A stretch of 64,000 bases of DNA, from the NCBI RefSeq assembly GCF_055900595.2, contig NZ_CM148325.1; one strand, 5' to 3'. Under the pieces are notes generated by a model, which had not been told where the DNA came from, made no database searches, and saw nothing but the letters and a program-made list of their open reading frames with translations. Position numbers and translations under genes: made by a program. Shown here piece by piece: positions 2,494 to 58,922 of this stretch; position 1 is the stretch's first letter, and every line of letters starts with the position of its first letter.

Positions 2494-3426
2494 ATGAACT
2501 CAATTTTTACCGAAGAGAATCTGTTGGCATTTACTACCGCTGCGCGTTTTAGCAGCTTCAGTAAAGCGGCAGACGAGTTGGGTTTAACCACTTCCGCCAT
2601 TAGCTACACCATCAAGCGAATGGAAACAGGGCTGGATGTGGTGCTGTTCACTCGCAGTACCCGCAGCATTGAGTTAACGGAGTCCGGGCGTTATTTTTTC
2701 CGCAAAGCTACCGACCTGCTGAATGATTTTCACGCCATCAAACGCAGCATCGATACTATTTCGCAGGGCATAGAAGCGCGTGTGCGTATTTGTATTAATC
2801 AGCTGCTTTATACGCCCAAACACACCGCACGCTTATTACAGGTACTGAAAAAGCAATTTCCAACCTGCCAGATTACCGTCACCACCGAAGTGTATAATGG
2901 CGTCTGGGATGCGATTATTAATAATCAGGCGAATATCGCTATCGGCGCACCCGACACGCTGCTGGACGGCGGCGGCATTGATTACACGGAGATTGGCGCG
3001 ATTCGCTGGGCTTTTGCTATCGCCCCGGATCACCCGTTAGCCTTTGTGCCGGAACCCATCGCCGAAAGCCAACTGCGTCTCTATCCTAATATCATGGTGG
3101 AAGACACCGCGCATACGATTAATAAAAAAGTGGGCTGGTTGCTGCATGGGCAGGAGTCGATTCTGGTGCCAGATTTCAACACCAAATGTCAGTGCCAGAT
3201 TTTAGGCGAAGGAATTGGTTTTTTGCCGGATTACATGGTCCGTGAGGCGATGGCGCAATCCCTGCTGGTTACCCGACAAATCCATAATCCGCGCCAGGAT
3301 TCACGCATGTTACTGGCGACCCAGCACTCTGCCACCGGTCAGGTGACGCAGTGGATTAAAAAACAATTTTCGCCAAATGGCATATTAACGGGGATCTATC
3401 AGGATTTACTGCATCGGGAGAATTAA
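2494..3426 (+). CDS. yahB: LysR-family transcriptional regulator YahB
   Basis: 310 aa; N-terminal LysR HTH (FTTAARFSSFSKAADELGLTTSAISYTIKRME) plus substrate-binding domain. Confidence 0.85.
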   Translation: MNSIFTEENLLAFTTAARFSSFSKAADELGLTTSAISYTIKRMETGLDVVLFTRSTRSIELTESGRYFFRKATDLLNDFHAIKRSIDTISQGIEARVRICINQLLYTPKHTARLLQVLKKQFPTCQITVTTEVYNGVWDAIINNQANIAIGAPDTLLDGGGIDYTEIGAIRWAFAIAPDHPLAFVPEPIAESQLRLYPNIMVEDTAHTINKKVGWLLHGQESILVPDFNTKCQCQILGEGIGFLPDYMVREAMAQSLLVTRQIHNPRQDSRMLLATQHSATGQVTQWIKKQFSPNGILTGIYQDLLHREN

Positions 3427-8194: not shown

Positions 8195-9667
8195 ATGTCC
8201 CGAATGGCAGAACAGCAGCTTTATATACATGGTGGTTATACCTCCGCCACCAGCGGTCGCACCTTCGAGACCATTAACCCGGCCAACGGTAACGTGCTGG
8301 CGACCGTGCAGGCCGCCGGGCGTGAGGATGTCGATCGCGCCGTGAAGAGTGCCCAACAAGGGCAAAAAATCTGGGCGGCGATGACCGCCATGGAACGCTC
8401 GCGCATTCTGCGTCGAGCCGTTGATATTCTGCGCGAATGCAATGACGAACTCGCTAAACTGGAAACCCTCGACACCGGGAAGGCGTATTCAGAAACCTCA
8501 ACCGTCGATATCGTTACCGGCGCGGACGTACTGGAGTACTACGCCGGGCTGATCCCGGCGCTGGAAGGCAGCCAGATCCCGCTACGCGAAACGTCGTTTG
8601 TTTATACCCGCCGTGAACCGCTGGGCGTGGTCGCAGGAATTGGCGCATGGAACTACCCGATTCAGATTGCTTTGTGGAAATCCGCTCCGGCACTGGCCGC
8701 AGGCAACGCGATGATATTCAAACCGAGCGAAGTTACCCCGCTTACCGCGTTAAAGCTGGCTGAAATCTACAGCGAAGCGGGCCTGCCGGACGGCGTATTT
8801 AACGTGCTGCCGGGCGTAGGTGCGGAAACCGGGCAGTATCTGACCGAGCATCCGGGCATTGCCAAAGTGTCATTTACCGGCGGTGTCGCCAGCGGCAAAA
8901 AAGTGATGGCTAACTCGGCGGCTTCCTCCCTGAAAGAAGCGACCATGGAGCTGGGCGGTAAATCACCGCTGATCGTTTTCGACGATGCGGATCTCGATCT
9001 CGCCGCTGATATCGCCATGATGGCGAACTTCTTCAGCTCCGGCCAAGTGTGTACCAACGGCACCCGCGTCTTCGTTCCGGCGAAATGCAAAGCCGCATTT
9101 GAACAAAAGATTCTGGCGCGCGTTGAACGCATTCGCGCGGGCGACGTTTTCGATCCGCAAACCAACTTTGGCCCGCTGGTCAGCTTCCCGCATCGCGATA
9201 ACGTGCTGCGCTATATCGCCAAAGGTAAAGAGGAAGGTGCACGCGTGCTCTGCGGCGGCGATGTGCTGAAGGGTGATGGCTTCGATAACGGCGCATGGGT
9301 TGCTCCGACCGTATTCACCGATTGCCGCGACGAAATGACTATCGTGCGCGAAGAGATCTTCGGCCCAGTGATGTCGCTCCTCACGTATGAGTCTGAAGAC
9401 GAAGTGATTCGCCGCGCCAATGATACCGACTACGGTCTGGCGGCGGGTATCGTCACGGCGGATCTGAACCGCGCGCATCGCGTCATTCATCAGCTGGAAG
9501 CCGGCATTTGCTGGATCAACACCTGGGGAGAATCCCCGGCGGAGATGCCCGTTGGCGGTTACAAACACTCCGGCATTGGCCGCGAGAACGGCGTGATGAC
9601 GCTCCAGAGTTATACCCAAGTGAAGTCCATCCAGGTTGAGATGGCTAAATTCCAGTCCATATTCTAA
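8195..9667 (+). CDS. betB: Betaine-aldehyde dehydrogenase BetB
   Basis: 490 aa; ALDH family with catalytic Cys region ([12 protein letters not shown]) and ELGGKSP motif. Confidence 0.9.
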
Positions 9668-9680
9668 CCAGGAGGTTTAT

Positions 9681-11369
9681 TTGCAATTTGACTACATCAT
9701 TATTGGCGCCGGCTCTGCCGGCAACGTCCTCGCGACACGTCTGACTGAAGATCCGAACACTACCGTGCTGCTGCTTGAAGCGGGCGGCCCGGACTATCGC
9801 TTTGACTTCCGTACCCAAATGCCCGCTGCGCTGGCGTTCCCGCTACAGGGTAAACGCTATAACTGGGCGTATGAGACCGAGCCGGAACCGTTTATGAACC
9901 ACCGCCGCATGGAGTGCGGACGCGGTAAGGGGCTTGGTGGATCATCACTGATCAACGGCATGTGTTACATCCGTGGTAACGCGCTGGATCTCGATAACTG
10001 GGCGAAAGAACCCGGTCTGGAGAACTGGAGCTACCTCGACTGCCTGCCCTACTACCGCAAGGCCGAGACGCGCGATGTGGGCGAGAACGACTACCACGGC
10101 GGTGATGGCCCGGTAAGCGTGACCACCTCAAAACCGGGTGTCAATCCGCTGTTTGAAGCAATGATTGAGGCGGGCGTGCAGGCCGGTTATCCGCGCACGG
10201 ACGACCTTAACGGGTATCAGCAGGAAGGTTTCGGCCCGATGGACCGCACCGTCACGCCACAGGGCCGTCGCGCCAGCACCGCGAGGGGTTATCTCGATCA
10301 GGCCAAATCGCGCCCGAACCTGACGATTCGTACTCACGCTATGACCGATCACATCATTTTTGACGGCAAACGCGCGGTGGGCGTCGAGTGGCTGGAAGGC
10401 GACAGCACCATTCCGACCCGCGCGGCGGCGAATAAAGAAGTGCTGTTATGTGCAGGCGCGATTGCCTCACCACAAATCCTGCAACGCTCCGGCGTCGGCA
10501 ACGCTGAACTGCTGGCGGAGTTTGATATTCCGCTGGTGCATGATTTGCCCGGCGTGGGCGAAAATCTTCAGGATCATCTGGAGATGTACCTGCAATACGA
10601 GTGCAAAGAACCGGTTTCCCTCTACCCTGCCCTGCAGTGGTGGAATCAGCCGAAAATCGGTGCGGAGTGGCTGTTTGGCGGCACCGGCGTGGGTGCCAGC
10701 AACCACTTTGAAGCAGGCGGATTTATTCGCAGCCGTGAGGAATTTGCGTGGCCGAATATTCAGTACCATTTCCTGCCAGTGGCGATTAACTATAACGGCT
10801 CGAACGCAGTGAAAGAGCACGGCTTCCAGTGCCATGTCGGATCGATGCGCTCGCCAAGCCGTGGGCATGTGCGGATTAAATCCCGCGACCCGCACCAGCA
10901 TCCGGCGATTCTGTTTAACTACATGTCGCACGAACAGGACTGGCAGGAGTTCCGCGACGCGATTCGCATCACCCGCGAGATCATGCATCAACCGGCGCTG
11001 GATCAATACCGTGGCCGCGAAATCAGCCCCGGCGCGGAATGCCAGACAGATGAGCAGCTCGATGAGTTCGTGCGTAATCACGCCGAAACCGCCTTCCACC
11101 CATGCGGTACGTGCAAAATGGGGTACGACGAGATGTCCGTTGTGGATGGCGAAGGCCGCGTGCACGGGCTGGAAGGATTACGCGTAGTCGATGCGTCAAT
11201 TATGCCGCAGATTATCACCGGCAATCTGAACGCCACGACCATTATGATTGGTGAGAAAATGGCGGATATGATTCGCGGACGAGAAGCGTTGCCGAAGAGT
11301 CTGGCGGCGTATTTTGTGGCGAATGGGATGCCAGTAAGAGCGAAAAAACTGAATCGCGATTTGAACTAA
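9681..11369 (+). CDS. betA: Choline dehydrogenase BetA (GMC oxidoreductase); apparent TTG start
   Basis: GMC flavoprotein with N-terminal FAD fold ([18 protein letters not shown]); AGGAGG SD at 9670-9675 then TTG at 9681 encoding (M)QFDYIII. Confidence 0.85.
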
Positions 11370-11660
11370 CGCAGGAACTTATAAGCTTGAGAGTTACCGT
11401 TCTACGATAAGGACCGAATCCTTATATAAAAAACATAGGTAACACTCATGCTTCATATCCAGTATTCATGATGCTGGTTTTTTGCTGATGTTTTTACCAG
11501 AATATTCCTGATACAGACTATTAATTCAAGCTTATCTGCGACAGATTTCATTTTCTGGATATATTATGAGTGACAAATCAAACAGGATATCGATCTGATT
11601 GAAATTTTATTTTATCTGAAGAAAAAGATTCGTGTTATTCTGTTTATTATAGCTGTTTGT

Positions 11661-12076
11661 ATGACAATGGTGCTATTATTTCTGTACATCAATAAAGACA
11701 ATATAAAGCTGAGTTACAGCCTAAAAATAAACCACACAACATCAGGCATACTTGTAAGCTGTGATAGCAATAATAACTTTGCCTGTCAGACCACAATTAC
11801 TGAAGATGTTATTCAGCGAATTACGAGTTTTTTAGACCAGTACTAATGCTAAAAATTGCCTTGTCAAAAAAATGGTAGATGAATACCAACAAAACTCTGG
11901 GCAGTAATAAACAGCATTCTGATAGAGAGTGCCTGTATAAAGCTGAAGTGACAATGACCGGGAAGGGAGCCCGTCTTCAGGAATGGATTCCTGTCTTTTT
12001 CACTGTAAATATCCTGGCATTATTAATGTCAGGATATTTACAGAAGTGCAGCATAACCATGACGGAACGGGGTTAA
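11661..12076 (+). pseudogene. Possible degraded ykgH-like membrane-protein gene (short ORFs in three frames)
   Basis: AT-rich ~780 bp gap between betA and ykgG has only 61-70-aa ORFs in different frames, where K-12 (recalled) has ykgH. Speculative. Confidence 0.2.
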
Positions 12077-12149
12077 GTCAGGTTGTCCTTAACGCTATTC
12101 ACAACCTCGTATACCGCCTTCAGGTTTATGTCCAGACTTCATATCTCTC

Positions 12150-33134: not shown

Positions 33135-33638
33135 TTATTGATAGTGTTTTATGTTCAGATAATGCCCGATGACTTTGTCATGCAGCTCCACCGATTTTGA
33201 GAACGACAGCGACTTCCGTCCCAGCCGTGCCAGGTGCTGCCTCAGATTCAGGTTATGCCGCTCAATTCGCTGCGTATATCGCTTGCTGATTACGTGCAGC
33301 TTTCCCTTCAGGCGGGATTCATACAGCGGCCAGCCATCCGTCATCCATATCACCACGTCAAAGGGTGACAGCAGGCTCATAAGACGCCCCAGCGTCGCCA
33401 TAGTGCGTTCACCGAATACGTGCGCAACAACCGTCTTCCGGAGCCTGTCATACGCGTAAAACAGCCAGCGCTGGCGCGATTTAGCCCCGACATAGCCCCA
33501 CTGTTCGTCCATTTCCGCGCAGACGATGACGTCACTGCCCGGCTGTATGCGCGAGGTTACCGACTGCGGCCTGAGTTTTTTAAGTGACGTAAAATCGTGT
33601 TGAGGCCAACGCCCATAATGCGGGCAGTTGCCCGGCAT
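33135..33638 (-). CDS. insB: IS1 transposase InsB (expressed as InsAB' by frameshift)
   Basis: 167 aa, [64 protein letters not shown]... Confidence 0.95.
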
Positions 33639-33832
33639 CCAACGCCATTCATGGCCATATCAATGATTTTCTGGTGCGTACCGGGTTGAGAAGCGGTGTA
33701 AGTGAACTGCAGTTGCCATGTTTTACGGCAGTGAGAGCAGAGATAGCGCTGATGTCCGGCGGTGCTTTTGCCGTTACGCACCACCCCGTCAGTAGCTGAA
33801 CAGGAGGGACAGCTGATAGAAACAGAAGCCAC
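33557..33832 (-). CDS. insA: IS1 protein InsA
   Basis: 91 aa, [43 protein letters not shown]... (zinc finger + HTH). Confidence 0.95.
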
Positions 33833-33949
33833 TGGAGCACCTCAAAAACACCATCATACACTAAATCAGTAAGTTGGCAGCATCACCAAAACCTGCAAAA
33901 ACTCTTAGATCTTTTACAGAGCGAAGATGGATTCAGTAGCAATAAGAAG

Positions 33950-36949
33950 TTGATTGGCAAATTTCGTTTGTTACCGAAAAAATTAACCACAAAGAAAAAA
34001 CATGAATCCCAAAATGGACACGTCCACTTTTCTAATCCTAAACGAGCAGCCGACCATTTATTTAATAATTTTGATCTGATACCAGAGTTTCGTATTATTG
34101 GTGACTTCCCGGTTGATAGTCACATTATCTCTGCACTATGGATTAACATGGTCGGGCATAAATTTGATGCCAGCTTAGATAACTGTTGCTATGGCGCGCG
34201 GCTAAAGCGTATTCGTAATGATGAATTATTTAGCAATGAGCAGGATAATCCATTCCATATCAGTGCAGTGGGTTCTTTTAGCCCCTACTTCCAGCCCTAC
34301 CAAAAATGGCGTGGTGATGGCTTAAAAGCTATACGTGACGAGTTGGAAAAAGATCGTGACATTATCGCCGCCTCACTGGATTTAAAAAGTTACTATCATT
34401 TTATTGATCCACTGGCTATAACCTCTGATGATCTCTATAACACACTAAACATAAAACTGACTGAGGATGAAAAAGCGTTTACTGCACAGTTAGCAGTATT
34501 CTTAAAGCACTGGTCTGACGGCGCAGCGGCATTTGGAAAGAAAATAGCGTACAAAACACCTGTTATTAATGGTGGTCTGGTCATTGGATTAACAGCCAGT
34601 CGGATCATTTCAAATATATTGCTACACCATTGGGATAAATTAGTCATTGAAAAACTATCACCAATTCACTACGGTCGTTATGTCGATGATATGTTCCTTG
34701 TAATACGCGATACAGGGAAAATTACTAATAATCACGAATTTATGTTATTGCTGCAAGATAGGCTTGGCAATGATTGCGTTTATTTGAAAAACGAGCAAAA
34801 ACAAATATGGCAAATACAGCAGGGCGAGCATTTCCAGGGTAAGACCACCATCCAGTTACAATCCGATAAGCAAAAACTTTTCGTGCTTCAAGGGAGGGCT
34901 GGAATAGACCTGCTCGACAGTATCGAAAAGGAGATCTACGAGCTTTCTAGTGAACACCGCTTGATGCCTTCACCGGATCAACTGGAACACTCAACCGCAG
35001 CTAAAGTCCTTTCCGCTGCCGGTAGTGTAGGTGAAAATGCCGATACTCTGCGCCGTGCAGATGGATTAACCATTCGTCGTTTGGGCTGGTCACTGCAATT
35101 ACGCTACGTTGAAACACTGGCACGAGATCTGCCTCCAAGTGAATGGAAAGAACAGCGGGAAGAGTTTTATCAGTTTGCCTACAACCATATTCTTAGGGCT
35201 GATAATCTATTTGCACATTTTAGTTATCTGCCAAGGCTGCTTGGCTTTGCTATCAGTATGAATGAATGGCAGCACGCGGAAACAATTGTACTTAAAGCTT
35301 ACGAATCCATCAACCTGTTGGCATCGGTGATTACTTCAGGTAAGGAAGTGAATATAAATGGTTGCAAAACTCGAGCAGTAAATGATCTTTGGCGCTGTAT
35401 AAAAGGCACATTAAGCTGGCTATTTGTTGATGCAGCGACACGATATTACAGTCCTGACAGATTATTTCTTGATAAACGTTCAAAGAAAGAAGAGTGCCTT
35501 GCGGATACATTTTTTAATCATATTTCACAAAGTCTGACGAATCTAAAGGATTTACTGGATCTTCGCTTTGATTCAGCAGATTTTTATTTAAAAGCGCCAT
35601 TGGTAGCTCGAGCTGATTTAGCAAAGGAACCTTATAAACAGATCGTAAAGAGTCAGTCGGCAGAAAAACTTGTTAATCAGCGTGATAGTAAAAAAGAAGT
35701 TAAAATACTGAAATTAATGAGCGACTCATCGCTTATTGATATTGACGTTATTAAGCTATTTTTGAAATCAACCAAGAATACCCGACTGGAAAAAGTGGCT
35801 AAAGGAAATCGTAAGAACGAAAGTTACCTACCTTACATTTTCCCTACACGTCCTTTAACACCCGCTGAAATATCAGAACTGGCCCCCGAATGTGTTGGAT
35901 TACCCTCCACATCCGACAAAAAACCAGATGAGAGACCGTCCACCATTTGGGCAAAATATACTCAAGCATTACGCGGAGTATGGATCAAACCGACGTTGCT
36001 AGCATCGGAGCAGGACTCAGATGAAGCGACAAAAAAAGCTCGGCCTAAGAAATTCATTCATATTGGCACAGACAGGAAACATAAAGTTGTCGTTGCGCTA
36101 ACCAGCATTAAAACAGAGGAGGACGACTGGGCTAAAATGGCCTGCAATAAATCTAACTTGTCCCGTTCAAGGTACCAGCGGATTTCTGAACTGGTTAATG
36201 CAACATTGAAACTATCTCCTAAACCTGATTATGTTTTATTCCCTGAGCTTTCAATCCCGTTACGCTGGGTTAACAGTATTGCTGATCGTTTGAGTTCGGC
36301 GGGTATCAGTCTAATTGCGGGAACAGAATACCGCCACTTAGACGATAATCAACTGAAGAGTGAGGCCGTACTTGTCCTTTCAGATAACAGACTCGGCTAT
36401 CCAGCGAGTGTCAAAATATGGCAACCCAAGCTGGAACCCGCCGTAGGTGAAGATGAGGCATTATTTTCAACTTATGGTAAGTCTTGGGACTCGACACTTA
36501 ATGTTAAACAACGTAAGCCGGTATATATTCATCATGGCGTCAATTTTGGCGTTATGATTTGCTCTGAACTCCAGAATAGTAAAGCGAGGATCCGTTTTCA
36601 GGGCGCACTCGATGCATTAATGGTATTGAGCTGGAATAAAGATCTAGATACGTTTGCATCGTTGATTGAATCAGCAGCGCTGGATATTCATGCCTATACT
36701 ATTTTAGTGAATAACCGAAAATACGGCGATAGTCGCGTACGTTCCCCGGCAAAAGAACCCTTTATGCGTGATATTGCTCGTGTGAAGGGCGGTGATAATG
36801 ACTTTGTGGTCGCTGCAACGCTGGATATCGACTCGTTAAGGGCATTTCAGAGCAGGGCAAAACGCTGGCCTAAAGGCGGCGATAAATTCAAACCGTTACC
36901 TGAAGGATTCCAGTTGGCAAAGAACCGCAAAAAGCTACCGCCAAAATAA
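33950..36949 (+). CDS. Reverse transcriptase with C-terminal nitrilase (C-N hydrolase) domain; defence-associated RT, DRT type 1 / UG1-like; possibly 5'-truncated by IS1
   Basis: RT motifs in order: A (ASLDLKSYYHFID), B (GGLVIGLTASRIISNILL), C (YGRYVDDMFLV). C-terminus has a nitrilase-type Glu/Cys pattern (YVLFPELSIP ... GVMICSELQ). ORF begins at TTG 63 bp after IS1 and the frame is open into IS1. Confidence 0.8.
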   Translation: MIGKFRLLPKKLTTKKKHESQNGHVHFSNPKRAADHLFNNFDLIPEFRIIGDFPVDSHIISALWINMVGHKFDASLDNCCYGARLKRIRNDELFSNEQDNPFHISAVGSFSPYFQPYQKWRGDGLKAIRDELEKDRDIIAASLDLKSYYHFIDPLAITSDDLYNTLNIKLTEDEKAFTAQLAVFLKHWSDGAAAFGKKIAYKTPVINGGLVIGLTASRIISNILLHHWDKLVIEKLSPIHYGRYVDDMFLVIRDTGKITNNHEFMLLLQDRLGNDCVYLKNEQKQIWQIQQGEHFQGKTTIQLQSDKQKLFVLQGRAGIDLLDSIEKEIYELSSEHRLMPSPDQLEHSTAAKVLSAAGSVGENADTLRRADGLTIRRLGWSLQLRYVETLARDLPPSEWKEQREEFYQFAYNHILRADNLFAHFSYLPRLLGFAISMNEWQHAETIVLKAYESINLLASVITSGKEVNINGCKTRAVNDLWRCIKGTLSWLFVDAATRYYSPDRLFLDKRSKKEECLADTFFNHISQSLTNLKDLLDLRFDSADFYLKAPLVARADLAKEPYKQIVKSQSAEKLVNQRDSKKEVKILKLMSDSSLIDIDVIKLFLKSTKNTRLEKVAKGNRKNESYLPYIFPTRPLTPAEISELAPECVGLPSTSDKKPDERPSTIWAKYTQALRGVWIKPTLLASEQDSDEATKKARPKKFIHIGTDRKHKVVVALTSIKTEEDDWAKMACNKSNLSRSRYQRISELVNATLKLSPKPDYVLFPELSIPLRWVNSIADRLSSAGISLIAGTEYRHLDDNQLKSEAVLVLSDNRLGYPASVKIWQPKLEPAVGEDEALFSTYGKSWDSTLNVKQRKPVYIHHGVNFGVMICSELQNSKARIRFQGALDALMVLSWNKDLDTFASLIESAALDIHAYTILVNNRKYGDSRVRSPAKEPFMRDIARVKGGDNDFVVAATLDIDSLRAFQSRAKRWPKGGDKFKPLPEGFQLAKNRKKLPPK

Positions 36950-37111
36950 GAAACTGATTTTCGCTATTAATAATCAGGGTATTTTTGCGTGAGATGTCGG
37001 TAAACATGATGTAGCTCTTGCCACTCATGACCAATCGCAGTATCTTTCTCCCGCGTCTGCAAAATCAGGCGTCGGGATTAGCCTCCTGAAGAAATCTTAT
37101 CGGCGACACAT

Positions 37112-37132
37112 GACGCGCCAGCGTCTTTTTTT
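37112..37132 (+). terminator. Putative intrinsic terminator downstream of the RT-nitrilase gene
   Basis: GACGC-GCCA-GCGTC hairpin followed by TTTTTTT. Confidence 0.45.
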
Positions 37133-37295
37133 GTGTTGTTCGCACGGTTACACCTCAATGGTGGGCCGGGCGGGGGCGTCGCAAGACGCGCCAGTGTCCG
37201 ATAAGGCTGGTAAGGCTAACCCTGCCCGGTTCCACCACCCGCGAGATTAGCCTCTCCGGTGGTGGCTTGAACACCCACTTATCGGAGGTTGCCCT

Positions 37296-37766
37296 ATGGC
37301 TACAATCCTCACCACTGACAGCGATTTACTCGATCTATTGACCGTCCCCTTCAATGCCACCACGGATTTCACTGTCCTTGCTGACTACTGCGCCCGCTTT
37401 GCCGAAACCCTGATTGAAACCGACGATCCCGCGCTACGACTGGCGCTCTGCGGGCGGCTTCACGCGGCTCTTGCGCTATTGCAACCCACACTACACGACC
37501 CCATCCCACCGCATCTTACCGAAAGCCTGACCGTGGATACCCTTCCCGCCACACCAGAGCACTTTATTTCCGAACCTGATTCCTTGTGCGAATACTGCCT
37601 CGCACTACTCCAGCTTCTGCTGGAACGTCCGGCGGAACCAAAAATGGAGCAAACCCTGACCGGGCTGCTGTGTGAGCTGGTCTGGTATTTCACGGAAGGA
37701 CTCAAAGCCCCGCGCTGGATGCGTACCGCCGACGGCGTAAAATTTATCAGCGAGGTGGCCGCATGA
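37296..37766 (+). CDS. Hypothetical protein (156 aa), Leu/Ala-rich, acidic
   Basis: ORF preceded by GGAGG SD; no recognisable motif; stop overlaps the start of the ner-like remnant. Confidence 0.45.
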   Translation: MATILTTDSDLLDLLTVPFNATTDFTVLADYCARFAETLIETDDPALRLALCGRLHAALALLQPTLHDPIPPHLTESLTVDTLPATPEHFISEPDSLCEYCLALLQLLLERPAEPKMEQTLTGLLCELVWYFTEGLKAPRWMRTADGVKFISEVAA

Positions 37767-38103
37767 TGCAACAGGACTGGCATTCCGCCGACATTATTGC
37801 GGTGCTGAAAAAGCGGGGAACGCCTCTGGCGGCACAGAGAAAAACTCATTGCGGAAGCGCTGTAAATATCGCCAGAAATCATCTGGTCCTCAAGGTACTT
37901 TGATAGCAAAGGCAAGCTGGCTGGTTCAGTCCGGAGTCTCTCTTCTTGCACTTAAAGAGATGGGAGGATGGGAAACTCTCAAAAAGGTTCAGAGATACGC
38001 TCACCTTTCAGCCGGGCATCTCACCGAGCACGCAAGCAAAATCGGCACGATCATAAGTCGCAATGGCACAAATACGGCACAGGAGGAAGCGTGGTGTATT
38101 TAA
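37763..38103 (+). pseudogene. Frameshifted Ner/Nlp-like HTH gene fused to the 3' end of a tyrosine-integrase gene (deletion scar)
   Basis: Frame A reads MMQQDWHSADIIAVLKKRGTPLAAQ (Ner/Nlp-like N-terminus); frame B reads ...GPQGTLIAKA (Ner-like C-part) joined in frame to SWLVQSGVSLLALKEMGGWETLKKVQRYAHLSAGHLTEHA, a typical integrase C-terminus with the catalytic Tyr. Confidence 0.6.
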
Positions 38104-38121: not shown

Positions 38122-38144
38122 ATTTAAATGGTGCGATAATAGGA
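38122..38144. repeat. Partial copy of the thrW 3' end: distal att repeat of the thrW-integrated element
   Basis: TTTAAATGGTGCGATAATAGGA matches TTTGAATGGTGCCGATAATAGGA at 58841-58863 (tRNA 3' end plus 6 bp) with 1 mismatch and 1 indel. Confidence 0.75.
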
Positions 38145-38205
38145 ACAATACACATAGGCGATAAGCTTTGTTTTTGTTGCCTTTTTTATTGTTCATTTTT
38201 TATAG

Positions 38206-43671: not shown

Positions 43672-46398
43672 CTATTCCCATTCGCTAACATCTTTCATGC
43701 CACTGAGGGTAGCTACAATCCCGGCCCTTGTCAGTTTCACGAATTCTTCAGCCCCAACGGCATCACGAATTGCTTTCATGGCAATTTTATTGGCCGAAAA
43801 TCGTTTCTCTGCTGCGGCGATCGCTGCTGGTGATGCCCCTGCGCGCACTGCTTTTGTAGCTTCCTGAACGGCTTTCTCTATCGCATATCGACCACTTCTT
43901 GTCGCCCCAATCTTAGCCACAGCATTTCTTAGCGCGCCACCAGCAACCAAACCACTAATCGAACCAATTACACCACCGCCAAAGCCTCCAGCGATCGCAC
44001 CTGACTGTTGAACACCGTTCATAATCACGCCGACGATCTTTGGAAGGCCTGAATCGAGCGTTTTGAGAGCCTCAGTTGTTCTTCCCGTGCGCTCTACGTA
44101 TCGCTGCGGTCTGGTACTGGCTTTAGCGAGTACACCGAACTCTTTCATCATTCTACCGAGATCTGGCGCATGACGACTGATGGCGTTTACATTCTGCTGG
44201 GTCATGAGCTTGGCAAAATACTGGATACCTGACTCTTCACCGATTCCTCCCTTCTCTCCCTGCGCCACAGCATGCTGAAGAATAGATGCTATTGCAGGTT
44301 GGCGTTCTGCTTCCGGCAGCGCGGAGATAAGACGGTGAAAAGCTCCCGTTCCAGTGTTTGCGGATGCCTTAAGCGTATCGGCACCTTTTCTTACCATAGC
44401 GTCTGATGCGAGATCTCGACCAAAAACAGATTCGGCATTTTGTTTGGCGATAATGTAACTTTTAGAGAGATCGTTAGCTTTCTGCCATTCTGTGAGGAAG
44501 TTTCCTTTTTCAGCCATGATGCGCATGTCATCAGTGATAGCTCTGCGCATTTCTCCGGCAATCCGGGCGGCATTGGCCTTACCTGCCCGGGTGTTTGCTT
44601 GTTCAGCATCAGCAAACTTAGCACGCCATGCCTTCATCCCGTCGAAGGTTATGCCGCCACCTTGGTTGTTGGCAGCCTGAAACTGTTTCATCTCCGGGCT
44701 GAGTGGAACATTGGCTGCTTTTTCTGCTTGGACGACAGCCATTCCATTACTCATTTTCATCCTTTCGCGTGGCATCGTGCTTCGCAGTTCTGCCCATGCC
44801 ATATTCTCTGCTGTTTTCATATCACTGAGGCTCGCGATGATGCGCTCTTTAATTGCTGCGCTTTTTTCTGATGCGCTTCCAGACTCAGCACCGAAATCAG
44901 ACAACTGCTTATTCAACTTTGAGGATATTTCATTGAAGGCCGTAAGGTGAGCATCCTGAACATTCCCAGGAGTTGATGCCAGAACACCTTCTGCTTGGGC
45001 AATTCCACGACTACCTGAGCGCATTCCAGGCGTCAGGGTGTTGATATTAATACCAGTGATTTTCGCCGCCTTAGCGACATCATCTCTGACGTTTGATGCC
45101 TGCGATGCGATATGCTCTCGGCCTACGGCAGAACGCGCTGCTTTCGATACATCATTGGCGGTTTCCAGAGTATTTGCTGCCCCTAACACATGGCCTGATT
45201 GATTTGTATTACTCCGCAATACATCTCGCATTACGTCACTGGCTGTCTGTCCGCTCTTTATTAAAGCGCGTGCTCCTAGCGATCCTGCTAGGCCAATACC
45301 TGTCTCTTTTGCTAGGTCTTCTGGGCTGATCTGCCCGTTCTTTTGGGCGTTCACCAATGTACCTGGCAGGTTTTCTGCCAACATACTAGCCACCTTTGTG
45401 GCCGCACGTTCAGCACGTGGAGCGTTGGCAACTGAAGAAGCTGCGGTAGCTGCCTTTCCTGCACCTAATCCTGTAATAAGGTAAGGTGCTAGCTGCTCAC
45501 CAGCCTGCGCGTATGGATCTGTAGGTTGGTCTACTGGGCGAAAGACAGGTGATATGGGCGTGTATGTGCCATCACCCACACCAAGCTTCTGAGCTGCCCA
45601 TGCTCCGGCTGATTGCGCCGCATTGACTACCCCCACGCCTGCGTCCATTACATCAAACGGTATATTAGCAATCCCTCTGGCCATCTGCTCTGGCGCAGCT
45701 TTCAGTCCTGGCGAAAGATATTCCATCTCAGGATTAAGGTTAGACTTGGCTACTTGCTGCTGCGGTTCCCCGGCATTTTCATCGGCGAGAAACTGAGCTC
45801 TTTTCTGCTCCCATGAACTGGCTGTTGGTAGTCCTGCTTCTATGTTCTTAAATTGCTGACGTTTTGCTTCCCATGCAGAAATATCTCCCACCTGAGAGAT
45901 TTCTTTATCAAGCTCTGAGTAGTCAGGCTGCTGAAGATTGCGATGTTGACTGGTTTGTGCAAACTGCAAGATTTCACTGTCATCAGGGATTATTCCGGCA
46001 TCTGCAAATTTACTTACGTAATTAGCCGTTTCATCTGGCAGTGTAGATTTACCGTTTCTGACGGCATTAATACGAGCATAGCCAGAATTATACCCAGCCA
46101 ATGCCATACCTATATCACCAAATCGCTTCATTCCTTTATTGAGATGGTTTGCTGCGATATCCATTTGCTTTTCAAATGGCAGTGAGCGCGGATCTGTTCC
46201 ACGATAACCAGCATCACTCATTACTGAGGGCATCAGTTGAGCAAATCCTCTAGCTCCTTTCGGTGACTCGGCACTTCCGTTACCACTAGATTCATTGCCA
46301 ACTAATGTTTCCATCGTCCCTGATGGGAAACCATATTTTTCATCGAGATGACGGGAATAGGCTTTCTGTTTTTCTGTCAGTTGTGCCATCATTGCCAT
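43672..46398 (-). CDS. Large protein with N-terminal lytic transglycosylase (SLT) domain; podovirus gp16-like internal virion/ejection protein
   Basis: 908 aa; SLT motifs (GARGFAQLMPSV ... ALAGYNSGYARI) then long helical region and C-terminal hydrophobic segment. Confidence 0.65.
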   Translation of the reverse strand: MAMMAQLTEKQKAYSRHLDEKYGFPSGTMETLVGNESSGNGSAESPKGARGFAQLMPSVMSDAGYRGTDPRSLPFEKQMDIAANHLNKGMKRFGDIGMALAGYNSGYARINAVRNGKSTLPDETANYVSKFADAGIIPDDSEILQFAQTSQHRNLQQPDYSELDKEISQVGDISAWEAKRQQFKNIEAGLPTASSWEQKRAQFLADENAGEPQQQVAKSNLNPEMEYLSPGLKAAPEQMARGIANIPFDVMDAGVGVVNAAQSAGAWAAQKLGVGDGTYTPISPVFRPVDQPTDPYAQAGEQLAPYLITGLGAGKAATAASSVANAPRAERAATKVASMLAENLPGTLVNAQKNGQISPEDLAKETGIGLAGSLGARALIKSGQTASDVMRDVLRSNTNQSGHVLGAANTLETANDVSKAARSAVGREHIASQASNVRDDVAKAAKITGININTLTPGMRSGSRGIAQAEGVLASTPGNVQDAHLTAFNEISSKLNKQLSDFGAESGSASEKSAAIKERIIASLSDMKTAENMAWAELRSTMPRERMKMSNGMAVVQAEKAANVPLSPEMKQFQAANNQGGGITFDGMKAWRAKFADAEQANTRAGKANAARIAGEMRRAITDDMRIMAEKGNFLTEWQKANDLSKSYIIAKQNAESVFGRDLASDAMVRKGADTLKASANTGTGAFHRLISALPEAERQPAIASILQHAVAQGEKGGIGEESGIQYFAKLMTQQNVNAISRHAPDLGRMMKEFGVLAKASTRPQRYVERTGRTTEALKTLDSGLPKIVGVIMNGVQQSGAIAGGFGGGVIGSISGLVAGGALRNAVAKIGATRSGRYAIEKAVQEATKAVRAGASPAAIAAAEKRFSANKIAMKAIRDAVGAEEFVKLTRAGIVATLSGMKDVSEWE

Positions 46399-47708
46399 CC
46401 CTTAAGTTTTGCCTGATAGTAACTTTCCGGCAGATAGCCATGTGCGGTCACATAATCCTTAACCAGTGAAGGATCCTGCAACAGCATTTTGGTATCAGTT
46501 TCTTCGTCCTTAGATTTGGTTACAGGAATACCGAGCCCGGCAATCTGTCGTTTCTGCATTCGAATAATTACGTCCTGCGCTTTATTCAACTCTCGCAAAA
46601 ATGCCTCATTGCTGGTTGCTGACTTAATGCCATTTTGAGATTGCATAAGGGCAGCCCTTTCCCCTTCGGTTGGGTTAGAGCCAAAAGTCCCTTTGAGGCT
46701 AGGCAGAATAACCTTTAGGTTGTATTCATCAGCTTTGGCGCGTAGGCTTCGTGTGTCTTCTGCTACATCAGGAAGGAATCCAAACCCCAGCGTCAGGGGG
46801 TTATAGTTCTGCGAGCGGGTAACGGCCGAAGGATGTTTCCCTACAATTCCCGCCAGTTCATGACCCACTTCAAGCGCAGAGTTCAAGGAGTCGATGTTAC
46901 CTGCAACAGTATTAATTTTATCGTTCATCTTCTCCACTTTCGCCTGCTGTATCTTGCTCAGTTCAGCATTGAGCTTGTCTCTCTCGATGTCATTTTGAGC
47001 ACGTCCAAGTCGTGCTTTCAGAACCATTTCTCTCGTGCGTAGTTGGTTATCGGATAGGACTTTGAACTGCTCCATATCGAGACGTCGATTACCCTGTTCC
47101 GCATTAACCTGAGCATTATATGCGGATGTATCTGCGTTCTGCTGTGCAATGCTCTGCCCTTGCTGCTTCTCTTGAACACTAAAGTAACTATTTGGATCAG
47201 CATGGAGGTGGATGAGGTCAGTGATTCTGTTGAATTCCTGTGGGTCATTCTGCCAAGACTGATAAACCTCTTCAGCAGGAAGACCAAATCGCTGTAATAC
47301 TGGATTTGCCTGCTGAATGGCCTTCTGCATGGTCAGTGGATCTCCAGTTTGTGACGCAAGACGCAGATTCATGGCAGCGTCAGCGGTCTGTCGATTTTGC
47401 TCAGCATCAATGAATCCCATCTGTTTTTGAGAATCAGCCATAAACTGGGGATACTGGGCCATTAACTTCTGCACGCCAACACGATCATTATTAGCTACCG
47501 CACTACCCAACCGTGCCTGATATTCTTTTAACTGCTGGGAAATTTGCGCCTGCTGATTAATCTCAGCAACGCCTCTTAGCCCCTGTAGCGCCATTAAACC
47601 TACGTTTGGCTGCTGCTGATACTGCACAGGCTGAGGAACGGAAGAACGAGGAGCATTATCATTTTGCGGTGCCATGCTAGGCAGCCCGCCAAGTTGCCAT
47701 GTCGCCAT
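46389..47708 (-). CDS. Gln-rich coiled-coil protein (439 aa); gp15-like by size and position
   Basis: Overlaps neighbours by 1-10 bp; no enzymatic motif. Confidence 0.5.
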   Translation of the reverse strand: MATWQLGGLPSMAPQNDNAPRSSVPQPVQYQQQPNVGLMALQGLRGVAEINQQAQISQQLKEYQARLGSAVANNDRVGVQKLMAQYPQFMADSQKQMGFIDAEQNRQTADAAMNLRLASQTGDPLTMQKAIQQANPVLQRFGLPAEEVYQSWQNDPQEFNRITDLIHLHADPNSYFSVQEKQQGQSIAQQNADTSAYNAQVNAEQGNRRLDMEQFKVLSDNQLRTREMVLKARLGRAQNDIERDKLNAELSKIQQAKVEKMNDKINTVAGNIDSLNSALEVGHELAGIVGKHPSAVTRSQNYNPLTLGFGFLPDVAEDTRSLRAKADEYNLKVILPSLKGTFGSNPTEGERAALMQSQNGIKSATSNEAFLRELNKAQDVIIRMQKRQIAGLGIPVTKSKDEETDTKMLLQDPSLVKDYVTAHGYLPESYYQAKLKGWQ

Positions 47709-48385
47709 TAGAATCCAAGCCCCCCAACAAGACCAATAAGCCCACCACCAATAGCGCCGGCCGCAGTTCCTATTCCAGGAACAACGGAACCAAGTTGCGC
47801 ACCCGCTAAAGCGCCTGATGCTGCCCCACCAATACCACGCGCAAGACTGGATGGCTGCTGCGCCTGACCTGCACGAATAGCGCCAAGCCCCTGCAAGAGT
47901 TGTCCGGTATTATTGGCGTAGTTTTGCCCTGCCGTTGCCTGCCCTGATGCCGCATTCATCCCGACATTTAGCAGGTTTCCATAATTTTGCATTTGCCCAC
48001 TGAGCCAATTGTTATAAAGCATGGGCGCAATGGAAGATAACTGGTTACTGGTAGCTGTTGAGCCAAGCCCCCCGGTAGCTTCTGCTGAGACAAGGTTCTG
48101 ATAACGGGCCTGATCTGCCTGTGTTTTATATAAACCAGAACCAAAGAAATCATTCGCGGCTTTATTCTGCCCTTCCAGAGTCATCAGTCCTTGTAGTTGT
48201 TGTAAAGCAGGCAATCCGACTTCTGCATACGGCTTGAGATTATTCATCACCGTATTCCACTGCTCGCGCTGCAAATCAATTGCCTGCTGCTGGGCCTTCG
48301 CCTGAGCTTTAGAGGCACCACCATCACCGCCTTTTTCGTATACGGCACGATTGAGATGTTTATGAGCTATGTGGGTAATTAACAT
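47708..48385 (-). CDS. Protein with C-terminal glycine-zipper membrane segment (225 aa); gp14-like
   Basis: C-terminus GIGGAASGALAGAQLGSVVPGIGTAAGAIGGGLIGLVGGLGF. Confidence 0.5.
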   Translation of the reverse strand: MLITHIAHKHLNRAVYEKGGDGGASKAQAKAQQQAIDLQREQWNTVMNNLKPYAEVGLPALQQLQGLMTLEGQNKAANDFFGSGLYKTQADQARYQNLVSAEATGGLGSTATSNQLSSIAPMLYNNWLSGQMQNYGNLLNVGMNAASGQATAGQNYANNTGQLLQGLGAIRAGQAQQPSSLARGIGGAASGALAGAQLGSVVPGIGTAAGAIGGGLIGLVGGLGF

Positions 48386-54329: not shown

Positions 54330-55389
54330 TGGTTGCCCCCGTTTTTCCTGGCATTTCGCCACCTTCCAGCAGGAAATGAACGTCACGAACGGCGAGATCC
54401 AATATCGCGAGTAACGCCTTCAGTCTTTCGTCTCGTGAGGGAGAGTTGCTCACCAGAATGTCGTTAATCACTTCTGTCAGTGTGATGATCTGGCTTGTGC
54501 GTTCGAGGGGATCCATATGCACATCGTAGGTTTTAATCATGTGCCACCTCCATGCGGATACGACCAGCAAAAAAGCAGACGTGATCGCGCACCAGAGAAC
54601 GGCGAGCATCGCGTTCAGACTCGGCAGCAATATGATGAATTTTGGCGGTAATTGTCGGGCAATCGCGGCGAACTGCGGCGATAATCCAGATAAATTGCGG
54701 TTTTTGGGTAGGGGTAGTAGCCAGCATGTGGCAGCCTCCTTGTACTGGGAATTCTTCCCACCACCGGAGCTGCGAAACTCGCTGGTGGTGGACTGAACAG
54801 AGTTCGCAGTACCGGCGTACAAGGAAACCGGCCAGCCTTTCGGCTGCCCTGTCCAGCCCACCATAATTTTGCAAGCGACGCGGATTATAACCACATCACT
54901 GAAAAAAGTGTGAGTCTGGCTAACGGCACAAAAAAAGACGCTCGGCGCGTCATGTGTCGCCTCGTACATTTCCGGGCTGCGAAACCCGGCACCCGTTTTA
55001 TGAGGTGCCTTATAACCATAAACCGTGTTGCCGCATAACGGCAAGCTCTTTTTTATGGACTCCGAAAACTCACTATTGGAAGAACCAGAAGCACAGTACA
55101 TCGCGCTCATTTCGTTAACGTCACGCGCGTGGACGAATGTTTTTGTGGAGTCACTACACGAGCGGAAGACATCATCTACGACCAGAAATTTTCTGGCGCA
55201 GCCGCTGACCTTCTCAAGGCTAATATCATCGCCCGAGATTTCTGGTATGGTTAAGGCATCCGTTCCGGCCACCAGCAAATGATAAACTTTGCTTGTATCT
55301 GCTGTATTAATGCCTGACTTTGCCGTCATATTTCTGGATTTTGGCGACATACCAGCCAGTGAAAATGTCTTCTTCTGGATGGGTATCAT
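54322..55389 (-). CDS. Uncertain ORF (355 aa); may be two genes, with an internal start at 54540 behind a strong GGAGGTG SD
   Basis: Continuous frame, but upstream two-thirds is low-complexity and a well-placed SD+ATG at 54540 suggests a separate 73-aa product ([19 protein letters not shown]...). Confidence 0.3.
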
Positions 55390-58846: not shown

Positions 58847-58922
58847 TGGTGCCGATAATAGGAGTCGAACCTACGACCTTCGCATTACGAATGCGCTGCT
58901 CTACCAACTGAGCTATATCGGC
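58847..58922 (-). tRNA. thrW: tRNA-Thr (anticodon CGU), thrW; integration site
   Basis: 76-nt minus-strand sequence GCCGATATAGCTCAGTTGGTAGAGCAGCGCATTCGTAATGCG...GGCACCA folds as a cloverleaf with CGT anticodon and CCA end. Confidence 0.9.

Follow-up and report, generated by a model that had tools for sequence, protein, structure and literature searches.

An IsrK-C4 antisense RNA module, independent of the neighbouring defence reverse transcriptase gene, in a degraded tRNA-Thr island

The window, that is the whole stretch of 64,000 nucleotides that was analysed (contig NZ_CM148325.1), holds a degraded island beside tRNA-Thr and proBA, as did all loci examined. A large open reading frame of 999 aa in this island encodes a defence reverse transcriptase (RT) of the RT_UG5-nitrilase type (E = 7.7e-288), and the initial annotation was correct in calling it an RT gene. 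The gene has been truncated by an IS1-associated event (IS1 ORFs at 33135-33832), through which its first 148 nt were lost, together with the AbiE pair that is found upstream in relatives. Between 33888 and 38144 the window equals positions 8939-13196 of the related locus L001 at 99.95% identity. The 851-bp region around the element described below is present in 865 of the 5426 complete E. coli genomes (~16%).

Between the RT gene and the next gene downstream, orf156, we found a compact set of RNA features. In the following list the recognition sequences of the antisense RNA are called a' and b', and the boxes that complement them are called a1 and b1 (upstream) and a2 and b2 (downstream).

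37018-37046, plus strand: promoter-like site (-35 TTGCCA, 17-nt spacer, -10 TATCTT), ~7 nt 5' of the start of the IsrK-like RNA; putative promoter function
37053-37131, plus strand: IsrK-family small RNA, equivalent of the P4 seqA leader (Rfam RF01394, 66.5 bits against a gathering score of 50, E = 4.9e-12, model positions 1-77)
37075-37084, plus strand: a1 box GGATTAGCCT, complementary to a'; upstream target or decoy (inverted repeat I2)
37095-37103, plus strand: b1 box TCTTATCGG, complementary to b'; upstream target or decoy (inverted repeat I8)
37112-37132, plus strand: intrinsic terminator of the IsrK-like RNA, GACGC-GCCA-GCGTC and then T7; near-invariant in homologues
37154-37242, plus strand: C4-family antisense RNA (P1/P7 c4; P4 CI RNA; Rfam RF01695, 71.1 bits against a gathering score of 45, E = 7.5e-12, full-length model 1-87)
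37197-37205, plus strand: b' recognition sequence TCCGATAAG, in the loop of C4 hairpin 2
37213-37222, plus strand: a' recognition sequence AGGCTAACCC, in the single-stranded junction of C4
37232-37265, plus strand: hairpin CCACCACC…GGTGGTGG, which shares the 3' strand of the C4 outer stem and has a2 in its loop (inverted repeat I1, 14 nt, 86% complementary; present in the fold; conserved)
37245-37253, plus strand: a2 box GATTAGCCT, downstream target of a'
37278-37286, plus strand: b2 box CTTATCGGA, overlapping the Shine-Dalgarno sequence GGAGG (37284-37288) of orf156, the ATG of which is at 37296
37296-37766, plus strand: orf156, the first gene under the switch; 156 aa, conserved Enterobacterales family
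37763-37900, plus strand: HTH_35 fragment, only profile positions 1-20 of 75
37849-38100, plus strand: C-terminal fragment of a tyrosine recombinase (Phage_integrase positions 137-170 of 172); the truncated rest of the operon spans 37763-38103

Attention had been drawn to this region by a pair of short direct repeats, described as occurring twice, ~170 bp apart, and as improbable by chance. Both statements hold: the repeats are real and non-random. The pattern GATTAGCCTC-N5-30-CTTATCGG has two matches in the 64-kb window, at 37076-37103 and 37245-37285, and was absent from all 100 dinucleotide-preserving shuffles. The first half-site, the a1 repeat CGGGATTAGCCTC (37073-37085), returns as the a2 repeat CGAGATTAGCCTC (37242-37254) at an offset of 169 nt. 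The second half-site, CTTATCGG, is present both as the b1 repeat (37096-37103) and as the b2 repeat (37278-37285), at an offset of 182 nt. A hairpin (37112-37125) followed by T7 lies between the repeats, in line with the terminator that had been noticed there. The stretch of ~65% GC, which was said to be unlike the surrounding DNA, was confirmed on one side only: the GC content over 37100-37249 is 0.63-0.65 (100-nt windows) against 0.39-0.47 just upstream, yet the downstream ORF itself has 0.52-0.63, so that the contrast is valid toward the upstream side alone.

An inverted-repeat search (inverted repeats I2, I4 and I8) showed that the middle segment holds the reverse complements of both half-sites, b' (TCCGATAAG, 37197-37205) and a' (AGGCTAACCC, 37213-37222). 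This complementarity of the half-sites to the middle segment is the most informative feature of the region, and it had been overlooked in the initial annotation.

The nature of the segment was revealed when the entire window was searched against Rfam with the curated gathering thresholds; the matches establish the family membership of both RNAs. A small structured RNA had been one of three options proposed for the region, and it is the right one: a C4-family antisense RNA accounts for the GC-rich segment, and an IsrK-family small RNA takes in the first repeat and the terminator. The fold is established as well. The minimum free energy structure of the C4 segment alone is the model structure (-51.1 kcal/mol, z = -4.2 against shuffles), and the IsrK-like RNA folds into two 5' hairpins, the second with the a1 core UUAGCC in its loop, followed by a single-stranded b1 tract before the intrinsic terminator. 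The c4-a1b1 motif (RF03163) stayed below its gathering score in the window and was found in the related loci L085 and L086. Despite this miss, the complementarity of a1 and b1 to a' and b' is present in the window copy, where 9/10 positions pair between a1 and a', 9/9 between b1 and b', 8/9 between a' and a2, and 9/9 between b' and b2. The promoter-like site matches the consensus at 9 of 12 positions, a quality that shuffles reach at 0.6 sites per region, and it is kept in two related loci, L003 and L089.

Relatives were gathered via a conserved piece of the IsrK terminator, which gave 78 viral contigs and, at first extraction, 49 unique modules. The final alignment (A1) has 49 distinct sequences, composed of viral modules, both copies from the window, L003, P4, a Salmonella phage and a Stx phage. 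For the C4 helices together with a'-a2 and b'-b2 (43 pairs), 94.2% of the cells in A1 are paired and 28 pairs have changed on both sides; for a1-a' and b1-b' (19 pairs), the cells are paired in 94.0%, with both-sided change in 14 of the 19. When the partners were slid along the alignment, pairing fell to 33-48% for the first set and to 35-41% for the second. Neither value was reached in any of 500 shuffles, a control that overstates the significance because the rows of A1, recruited by a shared terminator motif, are kin; this kinship does not affect the slid-partner control or the count of pair types.

The internal helices of C4 are 95.8-100% paired, with both-sided change in 13 pairs. Among the helices to the downstream boxes, b'-b2 is paired in 97.7% and has changed on both sides in 8 of its 9 pairs, and a'-a2 has done so in 7 of 9. 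Upstream, b1-b' is paired in 98.4%, with both-sided change in 7 of 9 pairs, and a1-a' has such changes in 7 of 10 pairs across the 49 modules. The set includes 10 alleles of a', 21 of b' and 26 a'/b' combinations. The clearest single case is L003 (strain MNCRE44, a sister lineage), in which TTATCGG is replaced by TTACAGG at both b1 and b2, the matching change is found at b', and the a boxes are unaltered. Furthermore, b2 abuts the Shine-Dalgarno GGAG in essentially all modules of the alignment. Folding and covariance across homologous loci had been proposed as a check on the region, and its outcome is positive: structure and target pairings co-vary in the 49 modules. Judged from these patterns, the repeats (a1/b1 and a2/b2) serve at the RNA level as targets of the antisense RNA that they enclose, and the a and b sequences set a specificity.

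Taken as a whole, 37018-37295 is very probably an IsrK-C4 antisense "immunity" module, a switch of the P1-c4/P4-CI type. The module is an instance of curated, experimentally characterised RNA families; it is of an already known kind and has nothing to do with the RT. The "c4 antisense RNA" and "c4-a1b1" motifs are among those described by Weinberg et al. (PMC2864571).

The closest parallel in layout is the satellite phage P4 (NC_001609), where the same two models match in the same order on the minus strand (C4 at 8420-8507, 74.9 bits; isrK at 8615-8692, 60.8 bits). The P4 immunity region is genetically defined, with a PLE leader containing seqA, a CI RNA carrying seqB, and seqC, and it aligns with the window locus. 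Both have a1 and b1, the terminator, C4 with b' and a', the a2 hairpin, b2 with the Shine-Dalgarno sequence, and the ATG. In P4 these parts read as a1 and b1 (GCGTGAGAA, TTCACAGG), then the terminator, a C4 with CCTGTGAA and TTCTCAC, and a2 and b2 joined to GGAGG and the ATG. The similarity extends into the downstream ORF, over its first ~8 codons (MATIL… in the window, MATTL… in P4). In contrast, the recognition sequences of P4 are unlike those of the window, hence of another specificity, and the spacer between terminator and C4 is ~110 nt in P4 and ~22 nt in the window. The genes downstream also differ: P4 has an Icd-like ORF, followed by epsilon and alpha, whereas the window has orf156, followed by HTH_35 and recombinase remnants. 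No P4 satellite genes (sid, delta, psu, alpha, epsilon or a P4-type int) flank the window copy at 37053-37295. The module probably works like that of P4; the surrounding element is not a P4 satellite.

With the immI operon of P1/P7 the window shares an antisense RNA of the RF01695 family that is encoded within the operon it represses. It also shares the arrangement of two recognition sequences with targets upstream (a1/b1) and downstream (a2/b2), with the downstream target overlapping the ribosome-binding site that serves the first ORF. For P1, these features are taken from established literature (Citron & Schuster 1990 and 1992, as cited in PMC8546580 and PMC8201110). The P1 immI operon is c4-icd-ant (PMC8201110), with c4 RNA repressing Ant antirepressor synthesis (PMC8546580). 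Whereas P1 and P7 control icd and ant, the first ORF in the window is not Icd-like and no antirepressor gene comes after it.

A third known system is the Gifsy-1 prophage region IsrK / orf45 (STnc1160) / anrP of Salmonella, which has, like the window, an IsrK-family RNA with its own terminator, then a C4-like RNA, processed in Gifsy-1, and then a regulated gene (PMC4825925). Hershko-Shalev et al. regarded Gifsy-1 IsrK as structurally homologous to P4 SeqA and described an RNA of ~80 nt, processed from read-through transcripts, downstream of it (PMC4825925). IsrK supplied in trans activates downstream genes in Gifsy-1, and Hfq binding was reported (PMC4825925); such activation in trans was demonstrated for Gifsy-1 and can be suggested for the window by analogy. 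Gifsy-1, like Stx and Salmonella phages, has an antirepressor gene under this control; in the window the gene is orf156. This type of switch is also used by many lambdoid prophages.

Based on these systems, the following course of events can be proposed. Transcription would start at the promoter at ~37018-37046, and most transcripts would end at the 37112-37132 terminator, giving an IsrK-like RNA of ~79 nt that bears a1 and b1. The read-through RNA would contain C4 (37154-37242), which, if P1 and P4 are a guide, would be cut out as a stable RNA of ~77-80 nt, with the mature form probably at ~37159-37237. The literature on P1, P4 and Gifsy-1 points to processing of the 5' end by RNase P, which would yield a stable RNA of ~77 nt able to repress in trans (PMC4825925, PMC8546580). 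In most P4-like copies, ~45 nt including a TATAAT-like box are present between the terminator and C4. These are missing here and in L003, L086 and L089, and therefore C4 production in the window probably relies on read-through, as reported for Gifsy-1, where the C4-like RNA is made by read-through from the isrK promoter (PMC4825925).

In the fold of C4, b' occupies a hairpin loop and a' an unpaired junction, and from these positions they could pair with a2, itself exposed in the loop of a hairpin (37245-37253), and with b2 (37278-37286), whether on the transcript of origin or on a sister transcript. The overlap of b2 with the ribosome-binding site is established here and, because b2 overlaps the Shine-Dalgarno sequence of orf156, pairing should block orf156 translation; polarity or premature termination would then lower the expression of the operon behind. 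The a1 and b1 boxes on the IsrK-like RNA would form a second C4 site. Under the P4 model such a site would be an extra termination target; under the Gifsy-1 IsrK model it would act as a decoy, titrating C4 and thereby switching on the operon.

The first gene under this switch, orf156, has 630 homologues across Enterobacterales. It had no match in Pfam, NCBIfam, PHROGs or PADLOC. Homology to Icd or to P4 ORF151 was considered and rejected, as there was no Icd HMM match and BLASTP against P4 ORF151 gave no similarity. Other elements carry an Icd-like gene or a gene for an Ant antirepressor behind the module. Compared with L003, orf156 has 24 synonymous and 10 non-synonymous codon differences, distributed as 6/4/26 over the three codon positions, a pattern which indicates that it is a real gene under purifying selection.

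What orf156 once headed can be read from intact relatives in E. coli and Klebsiella. There the order is variable defence cargo, isrK-C4, orf153, HTH_35, EFASI RNA (RF02957) and an Integrase_1 recombinase, followed by a P4-type integrase on the opposite strand and the tRNA. In these intact islands isrK-C4 lies directly 5' of the orf153 homologues. The module also stands at the head of a widespread and uncharacterised orf153 / HTH_35 / EFASI / Integrase_1 operon of Enterobacterales defence islands. In the window the switch is structurally intact and most of the operon behind it is gone. With the operon behind orf156 truncated, the switch may now control little.

This decay raises the question whether the locus is a relic, IsrK-C4 by descent and useless now as the element it controlled has decayed, a reading that we consider possible though unlikely. 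It would fit the truncated HTH_35, the recombinase of which only the C-terminal fragment is left, the flagging of both fragments as pseudogenes by RefSeq in relatives, and the EFASI RNA, which the Rfam scan did not find in the window; the neighbouring RT is likewise truncated by IS1. However, the model scores match those of functional P4 and of intact islands, and every target pairing is intact in the window copy. The purifying selection on orf156 (24 synonymous versus 10 non-synonymous differences) also speaks against a relic, with the restriction that this signal could predate the decay, as does the retention of the module together with orf156 in the 865 of 5426 complete E. coli genomes.

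A more far-reaching, speculative idea, to which we give only a small chance, is that the IsrK-C4-orf156 unit at the edge of the tRNA-Thr defence island has been retained as a domesticated function, either for RNA immunity in trans or as a master switch in intact relatives. In the first form, a trans-acting RNA would silence incoming islands, satellites and phages of the same a/b specificity. In the second, the switch would govern the orf153 / HTH_35 / EFASI-RNA / Integrase_1 recombination module of intact relatives, which would amount to RNA-controlled island mobility. Neither role is described for this island family in the literature searched.

The RNA interpretation of the module also has to be weighed against existing protein annotations. 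In relatives, RefSeq annotates a small "Ash family" protein over 37077-37250, and a protein-coding function of the segment would accommodate this PGAP call, the open frame, the matches to PHROGs and a weak match to Pfam PF10554 (22.6 bits, under the cut-off of 26). Moreover, the Gifsy-1 equivalent, "orf45", was reported to be translated (PMC4825925). Nevertheless, the annotated Ash CDS would start at ATT, the substitutions keep the RNA pairs and not the reading frame, and the P4 immunity factor is an RNA according to the literature cited in PMC3632133 and PMC4825925. Matches to Ash and PHROG families are expected from translating a conserved RNA gene, and we regard a protein-coding role as highly improbable. 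Over this region, both the CDS calls for an "Ash family protein" and certain PHROG families named "transcriptional regulator" look like translations of an RNA gene.

Several defence RTs use neighbouring ncRNAs, and the module adjoins the RT_UG5-nitrilase gene; a tie to the RT had been implied from the start, and the RNA might then be the template or guide RNA of the RT. This reading was rejected. In L003, a type I R-M operon (hsdR-M-S) occupies the position of the RT, and the same module is retained behind it. The homology between the window and L003 begins at ~37017, at the promoter-like site and past the stop codon of the RT, and the module is downstream of the RT. Modules without an RT are found in P4, in Stx phages and in other islands with other cargo, and the matches are to curated RNA families that are not RT-associated. 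With the RT swapped in L003 and homology starting at ~37017, the RNA module belongs with the downstream ORF, and the RT is interchangeable cargo, a bystander to the module. The independence from the RT is established here, a clean negative that removes a tempting link between a structured RNA and a defence RT.

Equally untenable are the two remaining options proposed for the repeats, operators of a DNA-binding regulator and target-site duplications (a scar) of a small inserted element: direct repeats ~170 bp apart around a compositionally distinct segment might suggest either, but the spacing of the half-sites is unequal (10 nt versus 23 nt), the b2 repeat is part of a ribosome-binding site, the intervening segment, which might have been missing in related genomes, is present in all relatives examined, and both options are ruled out by the complementarity of the half-sites to the middle segment and their co-variation with it, a three-way compensatory change across 49 homologous modules. 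The repeats are identified instead as textbook a1/b1 and a2/b2 sites of a c4/CI-type antisense RNA.

The IsrK-C4 module downstream of the RT is not the only one at this site. A second copy was found by the same models:

54781-55008, minus strand: second IsrK-C4 module (isrK at 54931-55008, 69 bits; C4 at 54781-54868, 81.1 bits)

It is followed by an Icd-like ORF of 64 aa at 54536-54727 (NF033153, E = 3.7e-20). This second module is within an intact element of ~20.7 kb (38145-58846) with a P4-type integrase, AlpA, an AntA-like protein and a P4 alpha-like primase. The element is bounded by tRNA-Thr (58847-58922) and by a degenerate copy of the tRNA 3' end at ~38130-38145, which from direct reading of the sequence is attR-like. 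A search for a full 23-nt repeat of the tRNA 3' end matched only the tRNA itself. The ~20.7-kb element is inserted between the older remnant and the tRNA.

The recognition boxes of the two modules have diverged. Copies 1 and 2 differ at 4 of 9 positions in the a boxes and at 5 of 9 in the b boxes (a2 and b2 sequences), and their different specificity implies that the two modules should not cross-react. Duplex energies, which were computed on the loop sequences only, separate clearly for the b boxes (cognate -11.7 to -14.9 kcal/mol, non-cognate -1.1 to -4.6 kcal/mol) and overlap slightly for the a boxes (cognate -9.3 to -14.2 kcal/mol, non-cognate -2.0 to -10.0 kcal/mol). On balance, the two modules should be heteroimmune, which would make this a case of two heteroimmune IsrK-C4 modules stacked at one tRNA-Thr site. 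The sole strong cross-pair is between a' of copy 1 and a1 of copy 2, at -10.0 kcal/mol.

Besides the main IsrK-C4 module (37053-37295), the window carries a second antisense RNA module of this P1/P4 immunity type, followed by a small ORF:

54781-55008, minus strand, second IsrK-C4 module (IsrK 69 bits, C4 81.1 bits)
54536-54727, minus strand, Icd-like ORF of 64 aa behind this module

The a/b recognition sequences, the C4 segments which pair with the target boxes and set module specificity, differ between the two modules, and we predict that these are mutually heteroimmune. As a separate observation, a 24-nt direct repeat with 83% identity, GGCGACACATGACGCGCCAGCGTC (37102-37125) and GGCGTCGCAAGACGCGCCAGTGTC (37175-37198), has one copy at the IsrK terminator hairpin of the main module and the other where C4 hairpins 1 and 2 meet. 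By eye, the corresponding stretches of the second module showed no such likeness.

The RefSeq annotation places a protein-coding gene over the main module:

37077-37250, plus strand, 'ash family protein' CDS spanning the 3' part of IsrK and the C4 RNA (in relatives, 12128-12301 of locus L002 and 14140-14298 of locus L003 from strain MNCRE44)

In the window copy, this CDS starts with ATT. Its translation weakly matched Pfam PF10554 (Phage_ASH), as well as several PHROG 'transcriptional regulator' families, and PF10554 was also matched by homologues of orf156, the first ORF behind the module, when the ORF calls were over-long. Both PF10554 and these PHROG families appear to include translations of C4 RNA genes.

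Upstream of the main module, the RT_UG5-nitrilase gene adjoins an insertion sequence:

33135-33950, region of an IS1 copy (insA/insB ORFs 33135-33832)

Because homology to the intact relatives begins only at 33888, the window lacks the initial 148 nt of the RT gene, along with the AbiEi/AbiEii pair that the relatives carry upstream. The 999-aa RT_UG5-nitrilase ORF is probably a pseudogene with a truncated 5' end.

In E. coli and Klebsiella, intact tRNA-associated islands carry an HTH_35 gene, an EFASI RNA and an Integrase_1 (PF12835) gene, in this order, 3' of isrK-C4-orf153, orf153 being the orf156 homologue:

10389-10517 in island L086 and 10300-10429 in island L089, EFASI RNA (RF02957, 100-119 bits)

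Variable defence cargo, namely AbiE, DUF4747, TacAT, PAAR toxin and AAA_23/MComp1, adjoins this unit.

The window also contains an integrative element at a tRNA gene:

38145-58846, integrative element of ~20.7 kb
58847-58922, tRNA-Thr at one border
~38130-38145, degenerate copy of the tRNA-Thr 3' end (16-17 bp) at the other border
43672-48385, P22-type DNA-ejection genes of the element (gp7, Inj_translocase and a 908-aa SLT-domain protein)

The element further encodes a P4-type int, alpA, an antA-like gene and a primase resembling P4 alpha, together with DUF2824, SocA/Panacea-domain and PRiA4_ORF3 proteins; nine cargo ORFs were compared with PADLOC, and no match was obtained for any of them. 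In locus L003 of strain MNCRE44, an IS009 RNA family match (RF02111, 193.6 bits; 2856-3056, minus strand) lies close to yagU, at the distal end of the tRNA-Thr island.
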